Assembly: GCA_000092065.1 (NCBI GenBank)
Contig: CP000594.1
Source of the DNA: Ostreococcus lucimarinus
Taxonomy: Eukaryota
Length of the DNA: 64,000 bases
Reading direction: 5' to 3' (one strand)
The notes below the pieces were generated by a model that was not told the DNA's origin, ran no database searches, and worked only from the letters and a program-made list of their open reading frames with translations. The translations under genes were made by a program, and so were the position numbers. Of this stretch, positions 1 through 23,353 are shown piece by piece. Positions within the stretch are counted from its first letter, which is position 1, and each line of letters starts with the position of its first letter.

Positions 1-3000
1 CTCGGCGGTGCCAAGCTTAAACATAAGACTGTACGTCGTCCCGCGCCGACCGATGACTGTCAAATCTTTGAACGTCGCGAGACCGTTCGAGACGCGTTCT
101 GACCCTCCGATCACCGCATATGGAGCCGGCGTTACTGTTACCGTCACATTATCCACTGAGTTTGTCACGACGTTGCCCGAAATATCGTAAACGGTGATTT
201 CAAACGTTGGAAGCGATACGTTGCTGTCATAGCTCGATGGAATGCGCTGCGTACCGAACTCAAGCCTGTACGGATCTCCGGGCTCGATGATGACTTCCAG
301 AGCATCGCCAATGAGAACCAAGTTTTGCGTTGACGTGCACTCGTTGGCTTGACATTCAGACTGAAATTCTAGCACGTAACGCCCTGCGAGCGGGCGAATG
401 AATTTCAGCCCCGTTGCGGTGCCGACAAATCCAGGGTCGCTTCGCACGCCGTAAAAGTCCAAACCAGTCCCCGTGGTGCCAGCGACATTCGGAGGTGAAA
501 GTCCACCAAGCGAGCGTAAATATGCGGTCTCAGCGGCGAGCTTGTTCTCGCTCGCTTCGCTACTATCTGGCGAGCAAAAGCTCTTTGCGCGATTGCTCTC
601 TGTGCCATCGGCGCACCACGCCGCTACACCATTGACGATGTAAAGGGCGCCCACACTCACTGATCGTGAATTGCTCGGCGAACAACCAATTGTGGCGTCC
701 GCGCACGATACGCTTGTTTCATCGGCGATGAGCGGTGACGTCACCGTTGTGGTGGACGTCGTCACTCCTGTGGCGCTCAGTGCGTACTGTTTTAGGTTGA
801 CGTTGACGGCTCGGCGGGCTTCGGCGGTGTCCAACGAAGAGCCCATGAGTAATCCACCGGCGTCACGTGTGACGACAAAAATGTCAGTAAGATCGACGAC
901 GTCTGCACTTTTGTATGGACGTGTATCTGTGCACAAACCGACGGGGAATTCCACGGTGACGTCAGCGCGAGCGCAATTTGGGCAACCGCACGCGTCCAGA
1001 GATGAAATATCGCCAGCCTTGATGAGAATGTCGAACGAATATGGCGTGAGGACCACGGGTGAAGGTGTCGACACAGTTACTCGATATGTCCCAGCGACGG
1101 GATTGTAGAGCCTGATGCCAGAGATTAGTCCAACGCCCGACGAGGTGGCGTATTGGCTGATTTCGGGCGGCTGCGAAAATGGGTCTTGCGTTGTCGACGT
1201 CACGTATTTTATGCCCACGCTCACATGTCGCAAGATCCCAAAGTCAGCGCTCGTGACTTCGTTTGCACCACCATCGGTAACCGTCACCGCAAACGGGGCT
1301 AATATCAGAACTCGTGCCGCCATGAGCGTTGTCGGACGACTGTACGTGGCGTCGTTTGGAGTTGGATAGCCACGCGAGCTCGGCACATTAAGTTGACTCG
1401 CATCGCCGAGGGTGATTGCCACGGCCACGCTATCCGATATCAACCCATCGCCTGCAAATGTCAAGACATACTGACCTACTTCCAGCGCTTGCGCGGTGAT
1501 GCCAGTAAATTTAACGATGGATCGTCCCATCGGCGCTGTAACCGATTTCGTAGCGTACGCTTGCGTCGTAAACGTCCTAGTCGAGTTGAATGAGGAACGT
1601 AAAGTCGCCGTGATAACCTTTGTGAACTGGTTGCTTTCCAATAACGTCCCACCAGCATCTTGCATGTGCACAGTGAATTCATCAAATAAAATGAGAGCAC
1701 TTGATTTGTATGAAGTCACGGTTTCGATGGTTGAGACGTGCTCTAGCTTCGCCGGAACACCTTCGATGATTTTCACCGTCATATCGTACGAGCTCAAGCC
1801 AGACGTGGAAAATCGGATGACATGCGTGCCCTGTGGTGGCGAACTGAGATAGAAATTACTCAGTACCACGGTCCCTGCGACTGTCGTACTACTTGTCGTA
1901 CCGAGCAACTGCGCGGTGCTATCCACCACGGAGATGGTCAAAGTGCGATTGACGCCGTCTTCGGCGAGCAGTTTGTTGCCCGCGGCGTCCACGACGTTCA
2001 GAACGAACGGTTCCGATGCACGACCAATAAGGGTGTAAGTCGATGACTTGAGCCCCACTTGACCGACCAAGCCTTCAAAGGAGTCCGGGAAGACGACGTC
2101 GAGCGACGCGGCAGAGCCCGGCCAAACGTCGTATGACACATCCACGTCAACCAAACCGGGGGATTTAAAGGTAACGATTGCCTTTCCACCGTGAATGGTG
2201 GACTTTGGAAGTCGAAATGCGATGTCGCTGAACGTCGCTGTGCCACTACTGATGGCTTTCGTGTGCGTTTGAGGTTGTGTCGCCGCGCACGCGTTTCCAG
2301 ACAACACACACGGATTCGTCCTGGCGACGTCAAACACTGCCTCAATCGTTCCGGCACAGCTCGCGTCGCCGGTGACACAGGTAGGAGAATACGCGCTCCC
2401 GACCAAATTATCGCCGCCATCCATAACGACAATGACGATTGGGCTCAAGACCACGAGCGCCGCTGACCTATACTGCGTACAAGTACACGAGGAACCACTT
2501 CGCAGGAGCGTCGTTGTCGTCGTACACAATCCTGTCCCTGTGTCGCGATATTGCACGTAATAATCATCGCAAGGCGCTCGTATAGCGAGATGGTGTGCGC
2601 GCCCGAGAGTCACAGTGATAGACTGCGTGAGATTCGAAAACGCTGGCATCGCTGGCACGTGAAATTTCAGCGTGTGCGTACCCACCTTTGCTCGTTCAAG
2701 CGCCAATCCCGCGAAAGTCACCGCGTTTGTCGCGACGTCAAAACTCGGACTCAATCCAGTCGACACAGCCAGCGGATCAGGAATGACAAACGCATGTCGT
2801 GTCGCAACCGTGGCATTATACGTCAAGTAATCGCTCTTCACCCCGATAGCATCGCTTGAGACGCCGGATGTGAACTCAAGGTACGCCACGACAGGAGTGT
2901 CCCCTAAAACGTAATTGACTCCATTTGCGTGCGCGTCGTACATTTGAAAATCGAACGCATCCAGAGGGACGTAATATGCCGCCGCGTAACGTCGAAACGT

Positions 3001-6000
3001 CGACATATTCATCACGCCAAACTCTGGTTCGTAAGTCGTCACTGGGGAGTTCGTGAGCGCAAAGCTACTCGGTACGCCTGACGTGACGGTGATGTTGAAG
3101 TTCAAATCCACGAGCGGCGAGGTGTTCGTGGACATGACGTTTCCAGAACTATCCTTCAGCGTGTTAGTCGTCGAAGAACACGTGATTCCGTGCACACCCA
3201 GCGTGACGGAAGACAAAGTCAAACCGGTGAGTACGGCGGCCCCAGTGCTCAAAGTATTGCCCGTGAGCGTTCCTGAAATAGAAAGTGTCGAGCTGGTGCA
3301 TGCGAAGGCGCGATCAACTGTGTACGAGAGCGTTGACGCATCATAACGGTCGTTCGCGCCCAAGAAGCTTCCCCCAATATCCGCCACATAAATCGTCAAA
3401 TCGCCCAGAGGCGTCGACGATCCGGCATAACGTATGTCAGAGCCGAACTCGAGGGTATGTTTCCACTGATGACCGATGTTGCCTTCGACCAGCTGAACGA
3501 GTTGCTTTGCCGGGCGAATGTAATCCGAACCAGTCGCGTAAAAGGCGATTACGTAATACCCAGCCGGTTGGACATCGAGCGTGATACTATTCGCTGCGAA
3601 CGTCCAAGTGGCTGTTCCAGTTGAATCCGTGACGCTCGTCGTGGAAGTCGGTTCGAGCGTGAAAGAGTCGCCGTATGCCCGAACGTCAACCGAGGCACCA
3701 GACTCCGGCGGCGATGTGATCAAATTATTTCCAGCGTCGTACAATCGCACCGTGATCGCGTTTGGGATGGTCAGCGTCGTTGAAGACGTCGTCATTGAGG
3801 GCACGATATGGTTATCTATCTCCAAATATCTCGGTCGACCGACCACAGTGGTGAATGCGGATATTGCCGAACCAAAGGACGCAGAGAATAGAAATCTGTA
3901 CGTCGCGTCCGCATCGTTTACTCCCCTGGACGCCGCAGGGTAGGTTAGATTGTTTACGAATATCGTTTTACCGGGTGTTCTCGCACCGATCGGTGCAGGA
4001 TTGAGAAGCTTCAAGTCACGGAATACCGCCACGCCTCGATGCGTAGACACTGTCGTGGAGCCATTGATAATCGATCCAGAGGTTCGCGGAGCGTTTGACG
4101 CGTCCACAGATGTCACCGAGATTGAGTGCGAAACTTCGTCAAAGTTGTGCAACCTGTTGCCTGCGGCGTCTAACACGTACACGTTTACGACGCCGACGTC
4201 GGATTCCTCATTAGTGGGCACCACCAATGTGTTTGTTGAGCTCGGTATCGCGGCCAATCCTACAGGCGCTCCAGGCACGACGGTGAAATGGAACGTCGTC
4301 GCCATCGCAAGGGCAATGCAACTTGAACCAGTGCAGTCTTCACCGATGACATCGACGACATAATTACCCATCCGCAAAGGTGCGCTAAAACGTAATTGAA
4401 ACGTTGCCTTACCATCCAAAGTGGTGATGGTGGACGGCACCGTCGTCATCGTCACCCCTGGTGTATCCGTGGAGAGCGAGGTGTTTAGCGTCGCCGTGAT
4501 TTTAAATCCCCGCGTCCCGCCAACGCCAAGATCATCCGCGATGACGGTGCCTCTGTTATCCACCAAGTTCACCGTCATCGCGTCGAGCGTCATTGTCGAC
4601 GCGCCAGCATCTTTCGTTGACTCATACGCAGTGTGAGCGATGTTTTGTCGCGCGTGCGTCACGCGAAGACCATTCGGCGTTCTATGCAGCGCTAGGGCGA
4701 CGCCGGTATGATAATCCACCCCATTCATGCTAAAATCCACCGTCACCGACGTCGGTGGCGGGTCTAACAACCACGGCATTTTCACGTGGTAGTCTCCACA
4801 TCCGTTTGCGCTCGTCGAAGGACAGAGGGGACACGTGACGCGTGTCGAGTTGACGTACGCCGCGTCCAACACGCTCTGAGCGCCGAATCGACATTTGAGC
4901 ACGCCGTCGACGAATGGACCGCCATCGATAGCAATTACCGCTGGATCCCCATTCGGTACTTCTCCCGTAAATAGCACCGAAGGCACGTGTGAATTCGTTA
5001 CCGACGTCGCGACGAGATTCGGCGGGTCGTAATACATGTAATTTGCCATTCCGCCGACCCATATAGAGTTTTCAAAAAACGTCGCGAGCGCGCTGCGATC
5101 GTCCGGATAACCCTCAAAACTGATACTGACGGCCGATATGTACGTACCGGTCGCCGCGAACGCACTGTACGACGGCGCATCGCATTCGATCGTTGTCGAA
5201 TTCACCAGTTTGGCTGGCACATACACGGGCGAACCGTCGTTCAAAAATCGGCACGCCACGCGGTGCGACAGAGTGTCGTCCGGGGCCCAGGAAGAGTCGT
5301 ATGGAAACCCAACACCACGAATCGTGAGCGTTGTCCCACCCGCCTTGGGTCCTCTTGAAGGGGAAATATCATCGATTTCTGTCACGGAGAAGCTTTGGTA
5401 CGAGATTTCTGCGTCCGAAACATTGTACGTCCCTGTGAACAACGCACCCATGCTTGGGATCGTCGTCATCGCACCGATCGGTCTTGTCGACGCCGTCGAC
5501 CCTTGAACTTCCATGCACGCCGATCCGACGCAGTTGGCATCCGGGAATACTTTGACTTTTACTATGCGCGTCGGAGCATTCACGTCTGACGCGTCCTGGC
5601 TCGTGAGGACGTACAGCGTCCCTCCACTCGCACCCCCATCGCTCACTGTCTCGATGGCGAGCGCATCCCTAACTAAACTACCACTCGTTCCTAACTTGAC
5701 GTGTTCTATCGCCGAGCTCGTGTTGTTGAATGATTTTCTAACCCGGTATACGCACGAGATGCGACTGACGCACGTTGCGCCGCACATCGCGCCGTTGTAA
5801 GGCGCACTCGATGTCGCGACGTAAGCATAATCTCCCATCACTCCGAGCGCGGTAAACGCGGTATACCTTCCGAGATAGCTCGACGAAAGCAAAGAATGAC
5901 CTTCGCACGCCGCGTCGATGGCGGTGGCGTCTTTAAAGTACAGCTCCCCATCCGCCGCGATTACGCTCTCGCTCGAGTACGGATTCAGGCGAACAATCGC

Positions 6001-7071
6001 GGGATAATCTTGCGCCGAACTAGCCTTCGCGCGACCTGCGAGAAACATATCGACGCCACCACCAGTTGTGCCGACCGTGACCGCCTCGGTGAACTTACCT
6101 GCGTCTCGTCTGTTGTGGCACGCCTCGCACGCCGCGCGCAGCGTCGGCAACGATATATCCTTCGCGCTCGGCGCTGCGTCGATACCGCTCGAATACACCA
6201 GCACGCGACCAAGCGCGCTCACCGCTGTGGGTGTTACTTTTAAAATCAAATCATCGTCCGTGCCCATGGCCGCAACGTCGACGATGTATCCATCCGTGGT
6301 TTTCTCGTGACGATTTCTAATCGTCCCGCCGCCCGACGCCAAATCTGACCACACGACGTAACCGTATTCAACTGGCTGCCCCGCCCTTCGCACCCACGCG
6401 TTTGCGATGGCGTATATCACATCACTCGTCGCGCTCGCGACGACGATCGGTCCGCGCATGGCTATCGTCGACCACCCGTCGCTCGTCGCCGCGTCGCCGC
6501 GCGGATGCCCGCACGACCCCTTCCATCCGTTTGGCACAGGATCATCCACGTCGAGCACGATCGTCCCATTCGCCTGCGGCCGCGCGGGCCAACGCGTGGG
6601 TTCATTCGCGTTCCACGCCCGCGCGCTCGCATCGCCCAACCGCGCGTAATGATCCACGCACAGCGCGTCTCGCCCGCCCATCGCGACGACTTCTCGCGTC
6701 CCCGCCGCGCGCGCCGTCGCGCACGTCACCTCCCGCGGCGCCGCCCCGACCCCCGTCGCCATCACCGGCGCCATCGCCGCGTACCACGTCTCCCGCACCG
6801 TCCTTCCATCGACCTCGACGACGCGCTCGAACGTCTCCACCGCGTCTCTCGCCGCGCCGCAGTCGACGCCGTCCCGGTCCGCGCGGCAGCGACACGTCTC
6901 ATCGATCTCGCACGTCCCGTACGACCGCTGCGCCAGGCACTCGCGCGGGCAAAAGCTATACGCGTACCCTTCGCGCGCGCTCGCGCCCAGTGATCCGCAC
7001 AGCAGCGCCAGCGCGCGCGTCACCGCGCGCGTTCGTCGCGCCGCGTGTGTCGGTTGCGCGCGCGACGACAT
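1..7071 (-). CDS. Giant secreted/surface protein, 3' partial (continues beyond window start). ATG at 7071-7069, then a signal peptide (MSSRAQPTHAARRTRAVTRALALLCGSLGASA), a Cys-rich EGF-like N-terminal module (CPRECLAQRSYGTCEIDETCRCRADRDGVDCG), and more than 2300 aa of repeated beta-sandwich (Ig-like/IPT-TIG/PKD-like) segments. Contains an RGD tripeptide.
   Basis: Manual reverse-complement translation of windows 1-300, 2521-2580, 3541-3600, 4501-4560, 5401-5520, 6241-7080 in the minus frame whose codons end at coordinates divisible by 3. Every window was stop-free and protein-like (e.g. LEVIIEPGDPYRLEFGTQRIPSSYDSNVSLPTFEITVYDI). None of the short minus-strand ORFs in the track is in this frame. 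The frame is absent from the track because it has no stop inside the window. Confidence 0.7.
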   Translation of the reverse strand, partial: MSSRAQPTHAARRTRAVTRALALLCGSLGASAREGYAYSFCPRECLAQRSYGTCEIDETCRCRADRDGVDCGAARDAVETFERVVEVDGRTVRETWYAAMAPVMATGVGAAPREVTCATARAAGTREVVAMGGRDALCVDHYARLGDASARAWNANEPTRWPARPQANGTIVLDVDDPVPNGWKGSCGHPRGDAATSDGWSTIAMRGPIVVASATSDVIYAIANAWVRRAGQPVEYGYVVWSDLASGGGTIRNRHEKTTDGYIVDVAAMGTDDDLILKVTPTAVSALGRVLVYSSGIDAAPSAKDISLPTLRAACEACHNRRDAGKFTEAVTVGTTGGGVDMFLAGRAKASSAQDYPAIVRLNPYSSESVIAADGELYFKDATAIDAACEGHSLLSSSYLGRYTAFTALGVMGDYAYVATSSAPYNGAMCGATCVSRISCVYRVRKSFNNTSSAIEHVKLGTSGSLVRDALAIETVSDGGASGGTLYVLTSQDASDVNAPTRIVKVKVFPDANCVGSACMEVQGSTASTRPIGAMTTIPSMGALFTGTYNVSDAEISYQSFSVTEIDDISPSRGPKAGGTTLTIRGVGFPYDSSWAPDDTLSHRVACRFLNDGSPVYVPAKLVNSTTIECDAPSYSAFAATGTYISAVSISFEGYPDDRSALATFFENSIWVGGMANYMYYDPPNLVATSVTNSHVPSVLFTGEVPNGDPAVIAIDGGPFVDGVLKCRFGAQSVLDAAYVNSTRVTCPLCPSTSANGCGDYHVKMPWLLDPPPTSVTVDFSMNGVDYHTGVALALHRTPNGLRVTHARQNIAHTAYESTKDAGASTMTLDAMTVNLVDNRGTVIADDLGVGGTRGFKITATLNTSLSTDTPGVTMTTVPSTITTLDGKATFQLRFSAPLRMGNYVVDVIGEDCTGSSCIALAMATTFHFTVVPGAPVGLAAIPSSTNTLVVPTNEESDVGVVNVYVLDAAGNRLHNFDEVSHSISVTSVDASNAPRTSGSIINGSTTVSTHRGVAVFRDLKLLNPAPIGARTPGKTIFVNNLTYPAASRGVNDADATYRFLFSASFGSAISAFTTVVGRPRYLEIDNHIVPSMTTSSTTLTIPNAITVRLYDAGNNLITSPPESGASVDVRAYGDSFTLEPTSTTSVTDSTGTATWTFAANSITLDVQPAGYYVIAFYATGSDYIRPAKQLVQLVEGNIGHQWKHTLEFGSDIRYAGSSTPLGDLTIYVADIGGSFLGANDRYDASTLSYTVDRAFACTSSTLSISGTLTGNTLSTGAAVLTGLTLSSVTLGVHGITCSSTTNTLKDSSGNVMSTNTSPLVDLNFNITVTSGVPSSFALTNSPVTTYEPEFGVMNMSTFRRYAAAYYVPLDAFDFQMYDAHANGVNYVLGDTPVVAYLEFTSGVSSDAIGVKSDYLTYNATVATRHAFVIPDPLAVSTGLSPSFDVATNAVTFAGLALERAKVGTHTLKFHVPAMPAFSNLTQSITVTLGRAHHLAIRAPCDDYYVQYRDTGTGLCTTTTTLLRSGSSCTCTQYRSAALVVLSPIVIVVMDGGDNLVGSAYSPTCVTGDASCAGTIEAVFDVARTNPCVLSGNACAATQPQTHTKAISSGTATFSDIAFRLPKSTIHGGKAIVTFKSPGLVDVDVSYDVWPGSAASLDVVFPDSFEGLVGQVGLKSSTYTLIGRASEPFVLNVVDAAGNKLLAEDGVNRTLTISVVDSTAQLLGTTSSTTVAGTVVLSNFYLSSPPQGTHVIRFSTSGLSSYDMTVKIIEGVPAKLEHVSTIETVTSYKSSALILFDEFTVHMQDAGGTLLESNQFTKVITATLRSSFNSTRTFTTQAYATKSVTAPMGRSIVKFTGITAQALEVGQYVLTFAGDGLISDSVAVAITLGDASQLNVPSSRGYPTPNDATYSRPTTLMAARVLILAPFAVTVTDGGANEVTSADFGILRHVSVGIKYVTSTTQDPFSQPPEISQYATSSGVGLISGIRLYNPVAGTYRVTVSTPSPVVLTPYSFDILIKAGDISSLDACGCPNCARADVTVEFPVGLCTDTRPYKSADVVDLTDIFVVTRDAGGLLMGSSLDTAEARRAVNVNLKQYALSATGVTTSTTTVTSPLIADETSVSCADATIGCSPSNSRSVSVGALYIVNGVAAWCADGTESNRAKSFCSPDSSEASENKLAAETAYLRSLGGLSPPNVAGTTGTGLDFYGVRSDPGFVGTATGLKFIRPLAGRYVLEFQSECQANECTSTQNLVLIGDALEVIIEPGDPYRLEFGTQRIPSSYDSNVSLPTFEITVYDISGNVVTNSVDNVTVTVTPAPYAVIGGSERVSNGLATFKDLTVIGRRGTTYSLMFKLGTAE

Positions 7072-7469
7072 CGGCGTCTTCGTCGCGCGTTCGCGTCGTC
7101 TTCAGCGCATCGCACTCGATGTCCGCGCGTCGGGCGATGCGCGACGGTGCGTTTTATCCGCGCGTCGCGTCGCGTCGCGTCGTCGCGTCGCGCGCGCGTC
7201 GCGGTTCGGCGTCGCGCGTCATTCCCCCGCGGCTCAGTCTCGTTCGGCTCTTGGATACAACACGGAACGTGCGCGCACATCGAATCGTCGCGCTTGACCG
7301 GCGCGCGGGAGACGCGCGCGCGGCGAGAGCGCGACGCCGCGCGCGCGATCGCGGTCGATCGTGATTCGAACCGCGCGCGACGGCGCGCGGGAGCGAACGC
7401 GGACGTCGACGCGCGGGCGCGAAGGCGCGCGCGTCGGGAGACGCGAGACGTCTCTTCGTATCCCTCGCG

Positions 7470-8777
7470 ATGATGCGAATCGTCGTCGTCGTCGTCGTCG
7501 TCGCGAGCGCGGCGCGCGTCGAGCGCGCGCGCGCGTCGACGATCGTGGACGCGTCGAGCGACGTCAGAACGGGCGGTTTCGCGGAGGTGCGCGGTCGGGC
7601 GCTTCGCGGGACGAGCGACGCGGAGGCGTGTCGAGCGCGCGCGTGGGCGACGGGCGCGGACGCGCCGGGCGGCGCGTCGACGGCGGAGGCGACGTGTGCG
7701 GCGATCAGTGCGACGTCGGCGACGCGATGCGAGGCGGCGATGGCGTCGTTGAAGTGTCGGCTCGCGCGGGCTGGCGCGCGCGCCCGCGCCGAGGCGTGTG
7801 ACCTCGCGAGCGCGGACGATTGCGAACGGTGCGTCCTGCGCGCGCTCGGACGAGGCGCGAGAGGACGCGGAAACATGAACGACAACGATTGGGACGACGC
7901 GGTGGAAGACGAGGCCGCTTTTGAGAGTGACCGCGCGATTACGCTGGACCGCGCGGTGGAGTTTTCAATGTACGTCGACGAAACGCACGCCATCGACAGC
8001 GATTGCAAGTTTTTGGTCTCCATGTTCAGAGCCGAGATGGCATCGCGGGTCGTAGAGTCATTCTCCACGCTGCTCGCAGAGGCGCAGCGCGAGGCCAAGG
8101 CGAGGGCGGAAGAAATCACCATCGCGCTCGCGGAAATTGACGAAGCGGCTCGCAGAAACGCTCGCGACGTCGAGCAAGCGGCGATGGCGCTCGACAAAGT
8201 ACGCCGCGACCAGCTCGAGTTCGCGACGCGGTTTGAAACGTTTGCGGCAAACTTGAACGCCGCGCTGGACCGCGTGGAGCGCGCGTCGCGCGGCGCGCTG
8301 CGCGCCGCTCGATTCGCCGCCGAGCTCGCGAAGCGCTGCGCGGGAATCGTTTCCGAAACCTTCGCGTCGTTGGTTTCGGTTGAGATGATTTTCGTGCGCT
8401 TCATCGTCATCGCGTTCGGAACCACGCGCCCGGCTTTACGGCGTTGCTGCTTTACGGCGTTACTCGTGGAGTGGATGTTACGCGCCGCGCCGCGAACGGC
8501 GGCGACGACGCCCTCCAATCGTCTTCGCCTCGGTCTCCTCTGCGCGTTCGCGCCCAGGATCTGGACGTACGCGAAAGAGCAACTACATCGCTCGCGACGC
8601 GACGACGCCGAGACGGGTCGCGTCGACGTCGGCGCGAAACCGCGATCCGGTCGTCGCGCGCGAGGCGTCCCCGCGGCGCGAATCGAACCGTCGCCTCGAG
8701 TCCCCGAGCCGACGATCGCATCGCCGCGTCGCGCCAGCGCGCGCCTTCGCGCGACGAAGACGACAAAAATAATTTAA
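7470..8777 (+). CDS. Hypothetical protein with an N-terminal hydrophobic signal-like segment (MMRIVVVVVVVASAARV), an acidic/coiled-coil middle and a C-terminal hydrophobic segment. The 3' part of the ORF is Arg-rich and may be read-through.
   Basis: ATG at 7470. Amino-acid composition is more protein-like than the overlapping Ser/Ala-rich antisense ORF 7154..8518. Sits divergent to the giant gene. Confidence 0.35.
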   Translation: MMRIVVVVVVVASAARVERARASTIVDASSDVRTGGFAEVRGRALRGTSDAEACRARAWATGADAPGGASTAEATCAAISATSATRCEAAMASLKCRLARAGARARAEACDLASADDCERCVLRALGRGARGRGNMNDNDWDDAVEDEAAFESDRAITLDRAVEFSMYVDETHAIDSDCKFLVSMFRAEMASRVVESFSTLLAEAQREAKARAEEITIALAEIDEAARRNARDVEQAAMALDKVRRDQLEFATRFETFAANLNAALDRVERASRGALRAARFAAELAKRCAGIVSETFASLVSVEMIFVRFIVIAFGTTRPALRRCCFTALLVEWMLRAAPRTAATTPSNRLRLGLLCAFAPRIWTYAKEQLHRSRRDDAETGRVDVGAKPRSGRRARGVPAARIEPSPRVPEPTIASPRRASARLRATKTTKII

Positions 8778-8800
8778 CGCTCCGCACACGCCGCCTCGAG

Positions 8801-9829
8801 ATGAGCCCGAAGATCACCGAACTCTGTTCGTACCCGGTCAAGAGCTGCGCCGGAGTTTCCCTGGACGCCTGCGCGCTGACGTCCACGGGATTAGCGTTCG
8901 ATCGGCTGTTTTGCGTCGTCAACGCTGTCGATGGAAAGTTCATCAGCCAACGCTCGCACCCGCGTTTATCCCTCGTCGCGTGCGCGATAGAGCCACCGGA
9001 CGCGTTCACCGATCGCACCGTGCGCCAGTTCGCGCTGACGTGCGAGACGTCGAGCATGGCGACGAAATTGCGCGTGGAGGTGGATTTGGACGACGCGAGC
9101 GGGACGGCGACGTCGGCGACGAACGTGGAGTGTTGGGAGTGGCGCGGGAAAGCGGCGAAATGCGGCGACGAAGCCGGGCGATGGTTCAGTGAGTTTTTGA
9201 ATCAAACACCGGACGGCGATGGGGCGGCGTACGAGCTCGTGCGATGGATGGGAAAGGGAGGCGCGCCGAGCGCGCCGCAAGACGCCGACGATTTAGACGT
9301 CGACGACGACGTCACGCGTTTAACGTCAGAGAATTACGGTTCGCGTCGCGCGACGACCACCCTGAGCGATGGATATCCGATGTTACTCGTCAACGCCGCC
9401 TCCGTGCGCGCGATGCACGAACTCGTGCGCGAGGAAACTGAAAAATCCAACGCCGCGCCCGTCGTCGTCGACAATCGACGCTTTCGCGGCAACGTCGTCG
9501 TGGACGACGCCAAAGCCTACGCCGAAGACACGTGGTCCGTGATCGCCCTCGGCGCGCGCGAAGTCCAAGCCGAGTTATGCAAGCCGTGTTCGCGATGTTC
9601 GATTCCCCTCGTCGATCCGGACGTCGGTTCTCCCGCGCTCGGCGCGCCTCTGGCGCGCGCGCTCAGTCGCGCGCGCTCCGGCGCCGCGTTACGAACCGCC
9701 AATCGTCTCTGGCGCCAGTCCCCGTTTTTCGGTTGGAATTTACTCGTCCCTTCGACGCAGGACGCCACCGTCGTGTTGCGCGTCGGCGACGACGTGCGCG
9801 TGTTGGAGACCCGTCCCGCGTTCCCCTAG
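8801..9829 (+). CDS. MOSC-domain protein (MOSC_N beta-barrel plus MOSC; mARC/MoCo-sulfurase C-terminal-like)
   Basis: ATG at 8801 (MSPKITELCSYPVKSCAG...). Conserved MOSC features GYPMLLVNAASV and the C-terminal Cys region CKPCSRCSIP. A longer upstream ORF from 8444 is Arg-rich and probably not coding. Confidence 0.7.
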   Translation: MSPKITELCSYPVKSCAGVSLDACALTSTGLAFDRLFCVVNAVDGKFISQRSHPRLSLVACAIEPPDAFTDRTVRQFALTCETSSMATKLRVEVDLDDASGTATSATNVECWEWRGKAAKCGDEAGRWFSEFLNQTPDGDGAAYELVRWMGKGGAPSAPQDADDLDVDDDVTRLTSENYGSRRATTTLSDGYPMLLVNAASVRAMHELVREETEKSNAAPVVVDNRRFRGNVVVDDAKAYAEDTWSVIALGAREVQAELCKPCSRCSIPLVDPDVGSPALGAPLARALSRARSGAALRTANRLWRQSPFFGWNLLVPSTQDATVVLRVGDDVRVLETRPAFP

Positions 9830-10093
9830 CGCGTCGCCGTCCCGCCTTCCATCTTTCATACGACACATATTATAGCGTATAAATCCCCATCAATCTATTC
9901 CCGCCGCGGTCGACGCATTCCAGAACCCTCGCGCGCGCGCCGCATTCCGCGTCGCTCGATGTCCGCGCCCGCGTGTTCCGCGTCGCTCGCGCGCGCGTCG
10001 CGCGTTTCGACGCGCGCGCCGCGCCGTCGCGCGCGTTTCGACGCGTCGCGACGCGCGCCGACGCCGCGCGGACGCGCCGACGCCGTTCGAACG

Positions 10094-11281
10094 ATGGCGG
10101 CGGACTCGAAGCACCTGCAGCGCGTTCTCGTCACCTCGCGCGACGGGCTGACGAGAGAGCTCGACGAAGACGTCGACAGCGTCGTCATCGACTGCGACGG
10201 CGTCGTCTGGAACGGCGACGCGCTGATACCGGGGGCGAAAGCGGCGATAGAGGCGCTGCGGGCGAAGAAGAAGAGGGTCTTTTTCGCGACGAATAACTCG
10301 ACCAAGTCGCGAGCGCACTACGCGGCGAAATTCGCGTCGCTGGGTGTGGACGTGTCGAAATATGAGATATACACGTCGGCGTACGCGGCGGCGATGTACC
10401 TGAAACAGCGAAGGTTCGATGAGATCGAGGACGGGGACGACGCGGAGCCGCGCGGGGAACACGGAGAACGAGTCGGAGACGCGCGACAGAAAAAGGTGTA
10501 CGTGATCGGTGAGAGAGGCGTGATGGAGGAGATGGAGGAGGCGGGGATTGATGTTGAGGCGGGGGTGTACGACAGCGTGCGGTGCACGGGGAGAGATTGG
10601 GAGGAGATGGAGGAGTGGTTGGATCCGGAGAACGACGTCGGGGCGGTGGTGGTTGGGAGCGATTCCGCGTTTACGTTTGCGAAATTGGCGTACGCGTCGC
10701 TGCAGATACAGCGCGGGGCGCTGTTCATCGCCACGAATCCCGATGCGGGGGATAAGATTGGTCGAGCGCTGTATCCAGGGGCGGGCGCGATCGTGAACGC
10801 GGTCGCGACGGCGTGCGGCGAGCAGCCGGAAATTTATTGCGGCAAGCCGAGCTCGTTCATGTTGGATTTGCTCTGCGAGCACACCAACATCGACATGTCC
10901 CGCACGCTCGTCGTCGGCGATAGAATAGACACCGACATTGCGTTCGGCAAGGCGGGTAAAGCCGGGCTCACCGCCCTCGTGTTCACCGGCGTCACCGACT
11001 CTGAACAGCTCAGAGAAAAGTGTCTGCTCGCCGACGCCGACGAATCGCTCGCCGACGCGCTCCCCGATCGCGCCATCGGCTCCCTCGCCGAGCTCGTCGG
11101 GCTGACGTTCGATCCCGACGAAGTCTGCGACAGCGTCAGCGACGTCGACACCGACGTTAACATCGACGAAGACGACATGCTTCGCGCGTTCCCCGTGAGC
11201 GACGCGCCGTTGCCCGAGTGGTCGCAATACGACGACGACGACGATCAATTCGATCAAACGCAGTACGCGCCGGCGTCGTAA
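10094..11281 (+). CDS. Phosphoglycolate phosphatase (HAD superfamily, p-nitrophenyl-phosphatase subfamily)
   Basis: ATG at 10094 (MAADSKHLQ...). HAD motif I VVIDCDGVVW, then GKPSSFMLDLL and VVGDRIDTDIAFG. The ORF-track start at 9959 is upstream of this ATG. Confidence 0.8.
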   Translation: MAADSKHLQRVLVTSRDGLTRELDEDVDSVVIDCDGVVWNGDALIPGAKAAIEALRAKKKRVFFATNNSTKSRAHYAAKFASLGVDVSKYEIYTSAYAAAMYLKQRRFDEIEDGDDAEPRGEHGERVGDARQKKVYVIGERGVMEEMEEAGIDVEAGVYDSVRCTGRDWEEMEEWLDPENDVGAVVVGSDSAFTFAKLAYASLQIQRGALFIATNPDAGDKIGRALYPGAGAIVNAVATACGEQPEIYCGKPSSFMLDLLCEHTNIDMSRTLVVGDRIDTDIAFGKAGKAGLTALVFTGVTDSEQLREKCLLADADESLADALPDRAIGSLAELVGLTFDPDEVCDSVSDVDTDVNIDEDDMLRAFPVSDAPLPEWSQYDDDDDQFDQTQYAPAS

Positions 11282-11464
11282 TTCATCACTATATTTTAAT
11301 CTGTAGTCTGACGAAAGTTTTCGAAATCATTCGCCTCGCCTCGCCCGAGCGCGCCTCGCCCGACCGCGCGGTTTGGGGGGGACTAAAAGTCGGTTAGACT
11401 TTACTACGCGTGGTGAAAATGAATCGTCGTGACCGCACATCTCGGCGCATCGCGCGCGCGCGCG

Positions 11465-11629
11465 ATGGATCTCGCGAAAACGATCCCAAAATGTCTCAAC
11501 GACGCGCAAATCTCGTTGACGACGCACAAGCGCGGCGCCAAGACGCTGTGCGCGGTGCGAAACGAAGACCCAGAGACGTTTTTACCGACGTTTTGTAACG
11601 CAATCTTGCCGGTTTTGCTCGAGTACAAG
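11465..11629 (+). CDS. CAPG: Condensin complex subunit 3 (CAP-G/Cnd3), exon 1 (55 codons, MDLAKTIPKCLNDAQISLTTHKRGAK...LLEYK)
   Basis: ATG at 11465. GTACGC donor at 11630. N-terminal similarity to NCAPG up to the ...YK|RE... junction. Confidence 0.65.
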
Positions 11630-11826
11630 GTACGCTTGGACGCCGCGGCGACGCGCACGCGCGCGGACGATACGGTGTCGTCGTTCGTTGGATGTGGACG
11701 ATCAGAGACGGCGGGAAACGCGCGTGTGAGATGCGAATGCGATGGAACGATGACGCCGGGACGCGGCGAGCGCGCGAGACGGGACGACGACTGACCGAAC
11801 GCGGCGAACGCTCGAACGAGACGCAG

Positions 11827-14610
11827 CGAGACGTGTGCACCGAACGTGTCGTACGATTTATCGTCACCTTTTGCGCGTGGCGCGAGGAAGGAATGGAGGA
11901 AGACGCGGATGAGTTCAACGAGGCGTTTTTGGGATTTTTGCTCAACTTGCACGGAGCGAAGGACAAGGCGGTGCGATTCCGCGCGTGTCAAATCATCGCG
12001 GGTGTGCTGAATGGACTCGGTGCCGACGCTGAGGTGAGCGATGAGTTGTATGAACGCATGACGGACGTGATGCTGGAGCGGATTCGGGATAAGATGCCGC
12101 CGGTGCGGGCGCAGGCGGCGCGAGCGCTGAGTCGTTTGCAAGACGGAGGGGAGACGCAAGATTTCTCGCAGGATGACATCACGCAAGCGTTCGTGGAGTT
12201 GCTCGGAAGCGAAAAGAACAAAGAGGTGCGAAAGGCGATTTTGGGCTCGCTCGCGATCTCTGATTACACGATTCCGTGCGTTGTAGAACGCACGCGGGAC
12301 GTGGCGGAGGACGTTCGTCGCATCGCATTTTTGGCGCTCACGTCCAAGGTGCCCGTCGAGTCGGTGTCTATCGCGCATCGTGCCTTGGTTTTGCGTCGAG
12401 GTTTGAATGATCGCGCACCCATGGTTCGAAGCGCGAGCGTCGAGATGCTCAAGCGATGGCTCGAAGCATTCCAGGGCGACGTCGTGAAATTCCTCACCGC
12501 GCTCGACGTCGAGTCCAACGAATCCGAAGCCGAGCTCGCGCTCAAGGAACTCATCACCATCGGTCGCATCAAGCCTATGGACGTGTGCAAAGACGTCGAG
12601 CTGGTGTCGAAAGGTTTGAAACGCGACATCGACGTCGACGGTCTCATGACGCCCGAAGAAGGGTTGTACTGGCGCGTCGTTTTGCAACATTTGGCCGAAG
12701 CCTCCGCCGTCAAGGGCGCAAATTCGGCGCAGTCGGTCGGTCAAGCGCGGGAAATCGCCGTCGCCGAAGTCGGTGAGATGATCGAAGCTATGGAATCGGC
12801 GTTACCGCCGACGGCGATGGATTTGCTGAGCATCGTGAGCTCGCACGCGAAGAGCGCGGAAGGGAAATTCGCGGCGAGACAACTCCTACCTCTTCTCAAA
12901 TGCGTCGATCTGAACGACGGTGCGATTCGACGAGGCGCCATCAACTTGGTCGCTGAGCAGCTTCACGTCAAACCCGTGGTGAATTCGCACGGATCGTCGT
13001 ACGCGTGCGGGGGTGATGGCAAGTGGGAGAGCGCGCTCGTCGAAATTGCTCGTCTCGTCGCCAACGATTCCACCGAATTCGCCGGTCTCGTTTTGGACGC
13101 CGCAGATTCTCTTCAAATGTCTGGTACTGCCGAATCGCTCACGCAGGCGTTGTACATCGCGGGTTCTTTGCTCGAGCGCACGTCGAAGCGTTTACCATCC
13201 GTCGCCGCCGAAGCCGTGATGGACTCTTTGATCAAGCCCGCGGTGACGCACTCCACCACGGCGGTTCGCCGGGAATCGATGCGCGTGCTGGGTCTCTTAC
13301 TCGCTTCTCAAGGCGTCATCAACCCTGACGCGGTGGTGATTCTGCGAACGGCCTTAAGTGCCGATGCCGCGCCCGTTCGATGCATGGCGGCTCGCGCGCT
13401 CGGCGACGCAGCGCTTCTTCATGGTCCCGCGGCGCTGGACAAATATCGCGTCCTCGTCGATCCGGAGGATGAAGACGTCACTGAATCCGCATTCAACGCG
13501 AGTCTTCCTCTCGAGATTGCACTCATGAAGTGCCTCGATGAAGAAGGAAAACCATTTGTGTTCAAAGCGAACGCGTATGATTTGGAAGACGTAGATGTTG
13601 AAGACGTGGATGCCACCAAGGCCGCCGCGGCGGTGGAGGCGGAGGAAAGCGTCGGCACCGTCGCCGCGGAGTCGCTCTGCAAAATCATCCTTCGTCGCGG
13701 TGAAGGCGCGTTTGAAGCCGCTGCGGCGGTTGTCTCGCGATTGCTTGGCAGCTACTTTGCGGCGGATGCGCAGCGAAGACCGCGTCTCGCACAATGCTTG
13801 GCCGTCTTCTTCCCGGCGCTCGCAAGCGGGCCGGAGGATCGTCGACGCTTGCTCGCGGATTGCGCCCTGCCGGCTTTGCGCGCCGCGGCTAAGATCAAGG
13901 GCTTGTCGCGCGTCGCCGCCCTTCTCGTGCAACTTCTCACCGCGTCCGAAGAACCGACGGCGGGCGGCGCCGAACTCGCCCTCGCGTTGGCGAACGAATC
14001 TCTGGCGTTAAGCACGAAGCAAACGCCATCTGGCGCGCAAGCACCGCTCGCCAAGGCGTACACCAACGCCATCGCTCGCGTGTTATCTGTCGTTCCAGTG
14101 AAATCCACGCGAGACGAAGTCGACGTCGCTGAAAAGGTCGAGCTGAACGACACGTTAACCAAGGCTTGGCACGCCGCCGTGCTCGCGGCGGAGCGAACAA
14201 AGGAAAAGTCTGCGGCCAAGGATTTGGCGATGGCGGCAGAACGTCTTCGCTCGAATTGCCTTGCGACACAAAAGACGGTGGCGCCCGAAACCGAAGGTAG
14301 CGAAGGAATCGCCGTTCCAGCGGATGACGACGACTTATCGACGCAGATGAACGACGACGTTCGCGCCGCCGTGATGGAGTACGCAGAGGAGCTCGCCAAC
14401 GGCGCTGACGTACCGTTTTGCGGTTCTAAAGTGAAAGCCGCCAAGGTGAAAGCCGCGCCCGCGGTGCCGACGCGCGAGTCTCGTTCGCGCGCGAGCAAAA
14501 CTGCGGCGGCGGATAAGCTGAAAGACGACGACTTGAAGAAGCCGCTTCCGAAAGTCACGCCCGAACGCAAGTCTCGTTCTCGACGAGGCGCGCTGCAAGA
14601 AACAAACTGA
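11827..14610 (+). CDS. CAPG: Condensin complex subunit 3 (CAP-G/Cnd3), exon 2. HEAT-repeat protein (DKAVRFRACQIIA, RDKMPPVRAQAARALSRLQ, NKEVRKAILGSL).
   Basis: Acceptor ACGCAG at 11821-11826 preceded by a CGACGACTGACC branch motif. Phase 0, in frame with ORF 11692..14610. The spliced junction LLEYK-RDVCTERVVRFIVTF aligns with human YK-REPAVERVIEFAAKFVTSF. Confidence 0.75.
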   Translation, partial: RDVCTERVVRFIVTFCAWREEGMEEDADEFNEAFLGFLLNLHGAKDKAVRFRACQIIAGVLNGLGADAEVSDELYERMTDVMLERIRDKMPPVRAQAARALSRLQDGGETQDFSQDDITQAFVELLGSEKNKEVRKAILGSLAISDYTIPCVVERTRDVAEDVRRIAFLALTSKVPVESVSIAHRALVLRRGLNDRAPMVRSASVEMLKRWLEAFQGDVVKFLTALDVESNESEAELALKELITIGRIKPMDVCKDVELVSKGLKRDIDVDGLMTPEEGLYWRVVLQHLAEASAVKGANSAQSVGQAREIAVAEVGEMIEAMESALPPTAMDLLSIVSSHAKSAEGKFAARQLLPLLKCVDLNDGAIRRGAINLVAEQLHVKPVVNSHGSSYACGGDGKWESALVEIARLVANDSTEFAGLVLDAADSLQMSGTAESLTQALYIAGSLLERTSKRLPSVAAEAVMDSLIKPAVTHSTTAVRRESMRVLGLLLASQGVINPDAVVILRTALSADAAPVRCMAARALGDAALLHGPAALDKYRVLVDPEDEDVTESAFNASLPLEIALMKCLDEEGKPFVFKANAYDLEDVDVEDVDATKAAAAVEAEESVGTVAAESLCKIILRRGEGAFEAAAAVVSRLLGSYFAADAQRRPRLAQCLAVFFPALASGPEDRRRLLADCALPALRAAAKIKGLSRVAALLVQLLTASEEPTAGGAELALALANESLALSTKQTPSGAQAPLAKAYTNAIARVLSVVPVKSTRDEVDVAEKVELNDTLTKAWHAAVLAAERTKEKSAAKDLAMAAERLRSNCLATQKTVAPETEGSEGIAVPADDDDLSTQMNDDVRAAVMEYAEELANGADVPFCGSKVKAAKVKAAPAVPTRESRSRASKTAAADKLKDDDLKKPLPKVTPERKSRSRRGALQETN

Positions 14611-22126: not shown

Positions 22127-23353
22127 ATGCACGCGTTCACCATGCGCGCGAGCGCGATGAAGACGCCGGTGGCGAAGATGACGTCGAGATCGCGATCGGC
22201 GACGCGACGCCAAGGCGCCGTGGTCGTCCGCGCGGCCGCGGCGACGGACGCGGAGACTGGGATCAAGAAGATGCGCGAGGGTATCAAGGAGGCGGCGAAC
22301 GAAAACTTGTTGACGCCGCGATTTTACACGACGGATTTCGACGAGATGGAGCGCCTGTTCAGCACGGAGATCAACCCGAACTTGGACGAGACGGAGATTA
22401 ACGCCATCTTGAACGAGTTCCGCGAGGATTTCAACCAGAAGCACTTCGTGCGCAACGATGAGTTCAAGGCGGCGGCGGATCAGATCAAGGGTGAGCCGCG
22501 CAGAATTTTCATCGAGTTTTTGGAGCGCTCGTGCACGGCGGAGTTTAGCGGGTTTTTGTTGTACAAGGAACTCGGCCGCAGATTGAAGAAGACGGCCCCG
22601 GCGGTGGCGGAGATCTTCACGTTGATGTCCCGCGACGAGGCGCGTCACGCTGGGTTCTTGAACAAGGCGATGAGCGATTTCAACTTGGCGCTCGACCTCG
22701 GGTTTTTGACCAAGAACCGCCAATACACGTTTTTCCAGCCGAAGTTCATCATGTACGCCACGTACTTGAGCGAAAAGATTGGCTACTGGCGTTACATCTC
22801 CATCTACCGCCACTTGCAAGCGAATCCGGACGAGCAATTGTACCCGTTGTTCAAGTACTTTGAGAACTGGTGCCAAGACGAAAACCGTCACGGCGACTTC
22901 TTCTCGGCGATTTTGAAGGCGCGCCCGGAGTTGATCAACACCACCGAAGCGAAGCTCTGGTCTCGATTCTTCTGCTTGTCCGTGTACGTCACCATGTACT
23001 TGAACGATCACGGCCGCAGTGAGTTCTACGAATCGCTCGGTTTGGACACGACGCAATTCAACATGCACGTCATTCACCAAACCAACAAGACGACGGCGAC
23101 GATTTTCCCGCAAGTCATCGACACCTACAACCCGGAGTTCAAGGCGCGTCTCGACAAGCTCGTCGGCGTGAACACCCAACTCCAAGCCATCGGTAAGGGT
23201 GAAGGTTCGGAAATCATGAAGAACTTGCAAAAGGCGCCGCTCATCGCCACCTTCGCGGGTGAGTTGATCGGTTTGTTGGCCATGGCTCCGGTCGACGCCG
23301 GTTCCATCGACTTGACCGGCGTTCCGGAATCCGACCCGTCCTTCATGTACTAA
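22127..23353 (+). CDS. CHL27: Mg-protoporphyrin IX monomethyl ester (oxidative) cyclase, plastid di-iron enzyme (CHL27/CRD1/AcsF)
   Basis: ATG at 22127. Full-length match to AcsF/CHL27 ([56 protein letters not shown]) with an N-terminal transit peptide. Confidence 0.9.

Follow-up and report, generated by a model that had tools for sequence, protein, structure and literature searches.

The contig CP000594.1 of Ostreococcus lucimarinus (assembly GCA_000092065.1) raises the question of what is encoded on the minus strand at the very start of the 64,000-nucleotide stretch that we analyzed (here called the window). A long open frame runs off the window at position 1 and is missing from the list of open reading frames (ORFs). 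An earlier note, made from the letters of this DNA, had read it as a giant, intronless gene of more than 2350 codons for a secreted protein, which could be a surface, scale, or flagellar-membrane glycoprotein of fibrocystin or adhesin type. We asked whether the frame is a gene, what protein it encodes beyond the window edge, and what that protein may do.

The open frame is part of a 10.4-kb single-exon gene

We translated the reverse complement of 1-7071 and obtained 2357 codons with zero stops (codons 1 to 2357 of the giant gene; 1..7071, minus strand), as the earlier note had claimed. Over this stretch, each of the remaining five frames has 56 to 115 stops. At the local base composition, the probability of a stop is 0.038 per codon, and the chance of a stop-free run of this length is approximately 1e-40. 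We also confirmed the proposed opening ATG at 7071-7069, which is the first ATG past an in-frame stop located 13 codons upstream. The ORF is absent from the ORF list for the reason that the earlier note had given: it runs off the window edge before a stop, and the list omits ORFs that leave the window.

On a metagenome contig, L001, the frame runs for 1104 further codons to a stop. L001 differs from the window at 16 positions over the shared 7071 nucleotides (99.8% identity). Its complete ORF (473-10864) is uninterrupted, 10.4 kb in length, and contains 3463 codons, counted from an ATG two codons upstream of the one in the window. Our protein search returned a protein of 3463 residues, P0001, which spans the entire query and differs from it at 10 of 2357 residues over the shared part (99.6% identity). 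Full-length 3463-residue alleles are present on at least six independent metagenome contigs. The gene that is still open at the window edge therefore continues as one ORF to its stop on near-identical contigs. We concluded that the window contains the ectodomain-coding first two-thirds of a 10.4-kb single-exon gene with a product of approximately 3460 residues.

The alleles differ at the start codon. Window positions 7075-7077 (minus strand) read ACG, and L001 473-475 reads ATG. All the full-length metagenomic alleles that we read start from this extra ATG ("MPMSS..."), which the CCE9901 window lacks. The reference also differs at four residues. Residue 624 is N in the CCE9901 reference and S in all environmental alleles covering the position, and residue 1593 is N in the reference and S in the environmental alleles shown to cover it. 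At residues 1848 (M/T) and 2097 (A/T), the reference differs from the environmental alleles wherever these were listed for the position.

None of the 40 members that we read of the P0001 cluster (392 members) came from NCBI or UniRef, and the clusters of neighboring genes do include O. lucimarinus RefSeq entries. On the basis of these 40 of 392 members, the reference annotation may lack the giant gene or model it differently.

The gene is syntenic with two orthologs and is under purifying selection

Two further proteins, P0002 and P0003, are approximately 52% identical to the query and approximately 90% identical to each other. On L001, the giant gene is followed by the genes for MOZART1 and phosphoglucomutase (PGM). 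At the P0002 and P0003 loci, MOZART1 and PGM lie on one side, and an ORF of approximately 430 amino acids, a MOSC gene, a HAD hydrolase gene, and Cnd3 lie on the other. We found the same gene order in the window on the side of the 430-amino-acid ORF, the HAD hydrolase, and Cnd3. P0002 and P0003 share this gene neighborhood and are therefore orthologs.

Between P0002 and P0003 (0.26 synonymous substitutions per site [dS]), the ratio of nonsynonymous to synonymous substitution (dN/dS) is 0.17 overall and 0.08 to 0.23 in every region, including the repeats described below. The whole length is therefore constrained, and the giant gene is under purifying selection. The corresponding polymorphism ratio for the window versus L001 (pN/pS, 0.57) comes from only 16 differences and is uninformative. 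Because full-length copies exist, because synteny is kept in a lineage that is 52% identical, and because dN/dS is 0.17, we consider this to be a real, constrained gene.

At the deeper split, identity is 52% for the giant protein, compared with 92% for PGM, 85% for Cnd3, and 85% for MOZART1 (window 9959-14610 and the neighbors on L001, L002, and L003). Exposed proteins typically evolve at such a relative speed.

The codon composition of the gene is also unusual. The GC content at third codon positions (GC3) of the giant gene is 0.63, with 0.79 in codons 1 to 300 and 0.57 to 0.64 afterwards. Other long ORFs in the window mostly have a GC3 of approximately 0.7 to 0.8 (range, 0.64 to 0.84), and that of the adjoining PGM gene is 0.81. 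The ortholog at L002 10001-20200 shows a weaker dip, and a more distant relative, P0049 on L004, shows none (GC3, 0.84). A local mutational regime is a possible cause of the shift.

The protein is predicted to contain nine transmembrane helices beyond the window edge

Past the window edge, P0001 has a Cys-rich stalk of approximately 250 residues with a weak match to Ephrin_rec_like; in relatives, the stalk is of the DUF7630 type. By hydropathy, residues 2615-3030 are strongly hydrophobic. The predicted cytoplasmic tail of approximately 430 residues is charged and rich in Ala, Glu, Ser, and Arg. We modeled residues 2500-3050 with AlphaFold2 from 34 homologs (predicted local distance difference test [pLDDT], 81.8; predicted template modeling score [pTM], 0.79). 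In the model, small beta-hairpin Cys-knots are followed by nine long helices. With the N terminus outside and the C terminus inside, clusters of Arg and Lys fall on every loop assigned to the cytoplasm.

Taken together, the nine-helix model, the hydropathy, and the basic clusters on the cytoplasmic loops point to nine transmembrane helices, with the N terminus predicted to lie outside and the C terminus inside. The giant protein is thus predicted to cross the membrane several times and to expose a giant N terminus outside the cell. The earlier note had called it secreted, and that description falls with the nine predicted helices and the 430-residue cytoplasmic tail just beyond the edge. From the N terminus, the parts are a probable signal peptide, an EGF-like module, a head, two TIG domains, 12 immunoglobulin-like (Ig-like) repeats, the Cys-rich stalk, the nine transmembrane helices, and the tail. 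The best-conserved 100-residue stretch of the whole protein is in the membrane module (residues 2901-3000, 73% identity).

Searches of PDB sequences with the whole protein and with the membrane module found nothing significant. The membrane model resembles no solved TRP or polycystin structure, which leaves the module without a solved structural relative, and it does not have the six-helix TRP fold with a pore loop seen in canonical TRP and polycystin-2 channels. A search of IMG/VR with the membrane profile found no viral homologs.

These results bear on the proposal that the protein is a homolog of fibrocystin or polycystin-1 and belongs to cilia, flagella, or scales. TIG domains and an extracellular rod fit this proposal, as does the label "polycystin-like," which the related fungal family carries. 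Fibrocystin (PKHD1) and PKHD1L1 likewise have a very large, type-I-like ectodomain with IPT/TIG domains. However, fibrocystin has a single-helix anchor and many TIG domains, whereas the Ostreococcus protein has nine predicted helices and only two TIG domains. Polycystin-1 has 11 transmembrane helices, so that the predicted number matches neither protein. Pfam found no G8, PbH1, or PA14 domain (as in fibrocystin) in the window product, P0001, or P0002 and no PKD, REJ, GAIN/GPS, or PLAT domain (as in polycystin-1) in P0001 or P0002. With no such domains and with a multi-pass anchor, the description "fibrocystin-like" is wrong. The earlier note had also assumed a flagellated prasinophyte with a possible scale or flagellar-membrane role for the protein. 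Ostreococcus is naked and nonmotile (PMC3491373), and flagellar and scale roles are therefore excluded. Homology to fibrocystin or polycystin-1 thus failed on each defining feature that we tested, and we regard it as extremely improbable.

The membrane module belongs to a large protist superfamily related to PF06011

We searched a profile of the membrane module against 1.84 billion representatives and found 2014 matches at an E value of ≤1e-3 and 146 at ≤1e-10. Many of these relatives are 2000 to 6600 residues long and carry the module at the C terminus. Among 64 mid-sized hits, 30 matched PF06011 ("TRP," the fungal Pkd2/Flc family) at an E value of ≤1e-3 (best, 2.6e-14), and 8 carried DUF7630. 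P0055 passed the PF06011 cutoff of 28.5 bits with a score of 38.8, and the matching stretch overlaps the one found by the module profile. The module is thus connected to bona fide members of PF06011 through intermediate sequences. The ortholog P0002 itself scored 20.4 bits (E value, 2.5e-4), below the 28.5-bit gathering threshold. PF06011 is the family of fission yeast Pkd2 and budding yeast Flc1-3. By sequence, the nine-helix module belongs, as a divergent member, to a very large superfamily of protist proteins, the better-behaved of which match PF06011.

Several giant protist proteins (P0049, P0055, P0062, P0107, and P0123) share the stalk and the module with the Ostreococcus protein, with E values down to 1e-31. 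Some giant protist relatives also share the Ig-like repeat, in 9 to 17 copies, and some carry TIG domains. P0049, a relative of 3168 residues that is not syntenic (GC, 66%), reproduces the full order of parts, with TIG, repeats, an Ephrin_rec_like stalk, and the module. The relatives differ in copy numbers and heads, and others carry CUB, LNR, or beta-helix domains or up to 29 TIG domains. We concluded that the giant gene encodes a variant of a protein type that is widespread among protists, in which a PF06011-type module is fused to a giant TIG/Ig-like ectodomain.

The PF06011 proteins with which we compared it (Pkd2, Trp663, Trp1322, Flc1-3, Aspergillus TrpR, and Cryptococcus Flc1) also have a signal peptide, an extracellular beta-sandwich, nine predicted transmembrane helices, and a coiled-coil-like tail. 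Their ectodomain is a single ML-like/TRP_N domain of approximately 150 residues, in contrast to the approximately 2600 residues of the Ostreococcus ectodomain. We found no Pfam match to an ML-like/TRP_N lipid-binding domain beside the membrane, where the Ostreococcus protein has the Cys-rich stalk instead.

The ectodomain consists of a head, two TIG domains, and 12 Ig-like repeats

All the features in this section lie on the minus strand. Residues 1-33 (6973..7071) are a probable signal peptide as read from the sequence, with an Arg-rich n-region, the hydrophobic stretch ALALLCGSLGA, and then ASA followed by RE. A hydropathy scan found a comparable hydrophobic N terminus in the ortholog P0002. 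The signal peptide noted earlier thus has a counterpart in a signal-like sequence here. It is followed by a six-Cys EGF-like module at residues 41-71 (6859..6951; C-x3-C-x8-C-x5-C-x-C-x8-C). P0002 and P0003 retain all six Cys residues and their spacing, which bears out the Cys-rich module that the earlier note had described. The terminal C-x-C-x5-G-x2-C, which we take to be the PROSITE EGF pattern, is also retained in the 22%-identical relative P0049. Pfam gave no EGF-family match at an E value of ≤1 for the window product or the full-length proteins.

The next approximately 490 residues (72-561; 5389..6858) form an orphan head domain. It is rich in strands, with approximately 25 short stretches enriched in strand-favoring residues, and searches of Pfam, NCBIfam, and PDB sequences returned nothing for it. 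A self-comparison with hhalign found no significant internal repeats (best P value, 0.016). Within the ectodomain, conservation is lowest in the head. A search with the head profile recovered only one near-identical fragment, and outside Ostreococcus the head aligned only with P0049, and weakly. A beta-propeller or Sema-like fold is a guess. The RGD tripeptide reported by the earlier note is present in the head (residues 191-193; 6493..6501) but is not conserved; the orthologs read "PRASS/PRASA." We therefore rejected it as an integrin-type motif, and it is probably a chance occurrence.

After the head, we found two IPT/TIG domains. The first (residues 562-670; 5062..5388) matched Pfam PF01833 over residues 566-636 with an E value of 1.4e-8 and 35 bits, compared with a gathering threshold of 20.9, and was also found by jackhmmer. 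The second (residues 703-778; 4738..4965) was missed by Pfam alone and was recruited with an E value of 1.7e-8 at round 5 of a jackhmmer search seeded with the first. An NCBIfam scan gave no match. Plexin/Met-type receptors also have a large strand-rich head (approximately 490 residues here) directly before their TIG domains, and we found a weak match to TIG_2, the plexin TIG (E value, 0.17). However, Sema and PSI are unmatched in the Ostreococcus protein, and only two Cys residues lie between the head and the TIG domain. We treat this likeness as a lead only.

The rest of the ectodomain in the window is an array of 12 tandem Ig-like repeats of 110 to 150 residues per unit (residues 817-2357; 1..4623), tiled by jackhmmer. 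Their core motif is V.V.DAGGN ... G.A.F..L....P..G.Y.L.F. The window edge cuts inside repeat 12, which extends approximately 15 residues beyond it. A six-frame scan of the window with the repeat profile (A4) gave 12 matches, all in the frame of the giant gene. The repeat also cross-matches other giant proteins, with independent E values down to 1e-13. We predicted the structure of repeat 7 (residues 1674-1798; 1678..2052) with AlphaFold, and the model is an Ig-like beta-sandwich (pLDDT, 87). The folds closest to it are spacer and adhesin Ig-like domains such as those of intimin, invasin, and Lap. Among known systems, the nearest are thus the bacterial Ig-like (Big) repeats of these adhesins, together with Ig-like domains from GH2 glycosidases. 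The repeats have no Pfam family match, and a search of PDB sequences with the repeat profile found nothing significant.

We considered whether the repeats could be divergent TIG domains and rejected this, as the hhalign probability was approximately 1% and TIG-seeded jackhmmer never recruited them. The serial beta-strand repeats that the earlier note had seen are thus real, but by sequence they are not the TIG or PKD domains that it had suggested. The two TIG domains lie before the array, one above the Pfam threshold and one found by iteration.

An ectodomain of this kind could simply be a passive surface coat or adhesin, in which the rod and head serve adhesion, spacing, or protection and the membrane module is merely a sturdy anchor. 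The adhesin-like fold of the repeats is consistent with this, as is the size of the ectodomain, which makes up 75% of the protein. The protein also diverges faster than its neighbors (52% versus 85 to 92% identity), as exposed surface proteins often do. Against this, one helix or a glycosylphosphatidylinositol (GPI) anchor would be sufficient for anchoring, and the membrane module contains the best-conserved stretch of the protein and is common to >2000 proteins with very different ectodomains. A conserved and widely shared module argues for a function of its own. We consider a passive coat or adhesin rather unlikely.

A possible function as a surface sensor coupled to a channel

What, then, might the membrane module do? 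Among PF06011 proteins, those of fission yeast offer the best evidence. AlphaFold predicts for Schizosaccharomyces pombe Pkd2 an Ig-like domain at the extracellular N terminus, nine helices that span the membrane, and a coiled-coil tail in the cytoplasm (bioRxiv 10.1101/2022.08.11.503631). Stretch-activated Ca2+ permeability is known only from S. pombe Pkd2, which after reconstitution passes Ca2+ under membrane stretch (PMC9727806). By analogy, we tentatively favor the possibility that the giant protein is a surface sensor of contact or tension coupled to a Pkd2-like nine-helix channel. According to this model, a long glycoprotein rod would hold the head out from the surface of the naked cell. 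Ligand or cell contact, or tension in the membrane, would reach the nine-helix module through the stalk, which is Cys-rich and rigid. On the Pkd2 analogy, this module would admit Ca2+ on membrane stretch, and the cytoplasmic tail may control clustering or coupling to downstream partners.

Several points weigh against this model. We found no match of P0001 to PF06011 at an E value of ≤1 with the whole protein, and the membrane module of the window gene had no Pfam match even at an E value of ≤10. The link to PF06011 is transitive, via intermediates, and concerns mainly helices 4 to 9. Residues that are near-invariant in the superfamily are lost in Ostreococcus, namely, a Cys pair in an extracellular hairpin and the motifs NY.Q and P[YF]. 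The loss of the Cys pair and these motifs may be why PF06011 does not detect the Ostreococcus proteins. The PF06011 proteins are themselves "putative" channels, and the budding yeast Flc proteins are described as flavin carriers. N-glycosylation sequons are not enriched (18 observed versus 17.9 expected), and we therefore rejected any argument from sequons that this is a glycoprotein. The low GC3 may come from low expression.

The lost Cys pair sits between helices 4 and 5. The losses fall at approximately residues 2845-2865 and 2655-2660 of P0001, beyond the window edge; the Cys pair and both motifs are at least 90% conserved in the superfamily (alignment A3).

The same family relationship allows a different reading, in which the protein is an Flc-type carrier of endomembranes that moves flavin, lipid, or another solute across the membrane of the endoplasmic reticulum (ER), Golgi apparatus, or vacuole. 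The giant N terminus would then be luminal and could be, for example, a scaffold that handles cargo or glycans. PF06011 includes yeast Flc1-3, which are named flavin carrier proteins. One homolog weakly matches Serinc, and another weakly matches PFF1_TM. Fungal members are reported to occur in both the ER and the plasma membrane (PMC11333956, PMC9600462). However, EGF-like, TIG, and Ig-like modules strung along a 2600-residue rod, together with a Cys-rich stalk, are characteristic of an extracellular protein, and reconstituted Pkd2 conducts Ca2+. The sequence suggests no ER retention signal, though no test was aimed at such signals. We think that an endomembrane carrier is improbable, and the sensor coupled to a channel continues to be the reading that we favor.

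A more specific version of the sensor model is that the rod is the main cell surface protein, that its head and repeats dock prasinoviruses or mating partners, and that docking is read out by the fused Pkd2-like Ca2+ channel. This version is a long shot.

Other genes and features of the window

The giant gene and the next ORF in the window are divergent. The intergenic region between them (7072..7469) has a GC content of approximately 0.72, contains in-frame stops upstream of the ATG, and presumably holds a promoter. The same arrangement is found in L002. The neighboring ORF of 435 amino acids (7470-8777, plus strand; GC3, 0.78) has no Pfam match, and its identity to the ORF in the syntenic position of L002 is only 36%, which makes it a second fast-evolving orphan beside the giant gene.

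Farther into the window, 22127-23353 (plus strand) encodes an Mg-protoporphyrin IX monomethyl ester cyclase, which is present on >400 environmental contigs. The minus strand at 50910-53633 encodes a 907-amino-acid BTA1-like S-adenosylmethionine (SAM):diacylglycerol aminocarboxypropyl transferase, identical to O. lucimarinus CCE9901 XP_001421536.1 (A4S7Z2). Both are ordinary housekeeping genes. An O. lucimarinus RefSeq protein is also present in the cluster of the Cnd3 ORF. These protein matches rule out Micromonas, which the GC content had suggested as the source.

Implications for the Ostreococcus cell surface

A very large protist superfamily of giant surface proteins, most of them unannotated and with >2000 cluster representatives, is anchored by the "fungal" PF06011 module. 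Neither the commonest ectodomain repeat nor the head has a family model in Pfam. If the head and repeats did dock viruses or mating partners, the protein would unite in one chain the receptor and channel roles that animals divide between polycystin-1/fibrocystin and polycystin-2, and the 12-copy repeat and the head would each define a new family of extracellular domains.

Ostreococcus is the smallest free-living eukaryote and has no wall, scales, or flagellum, and its genome is among the most compact of eukaryotes. That such a genome retains a 10.4-kb gene for one predicted surface protein under purifying selection implies an important function at the surface of a cell whose exterior is poorly understood. 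O. tauri supports homologous recombination, and the genus is genetically tractable. If the analogy with Pkd2 and Flc holds, the giant protein would be a candidate mechanosensor or contact sensor, virus receptor, or gamete recognition molecule.

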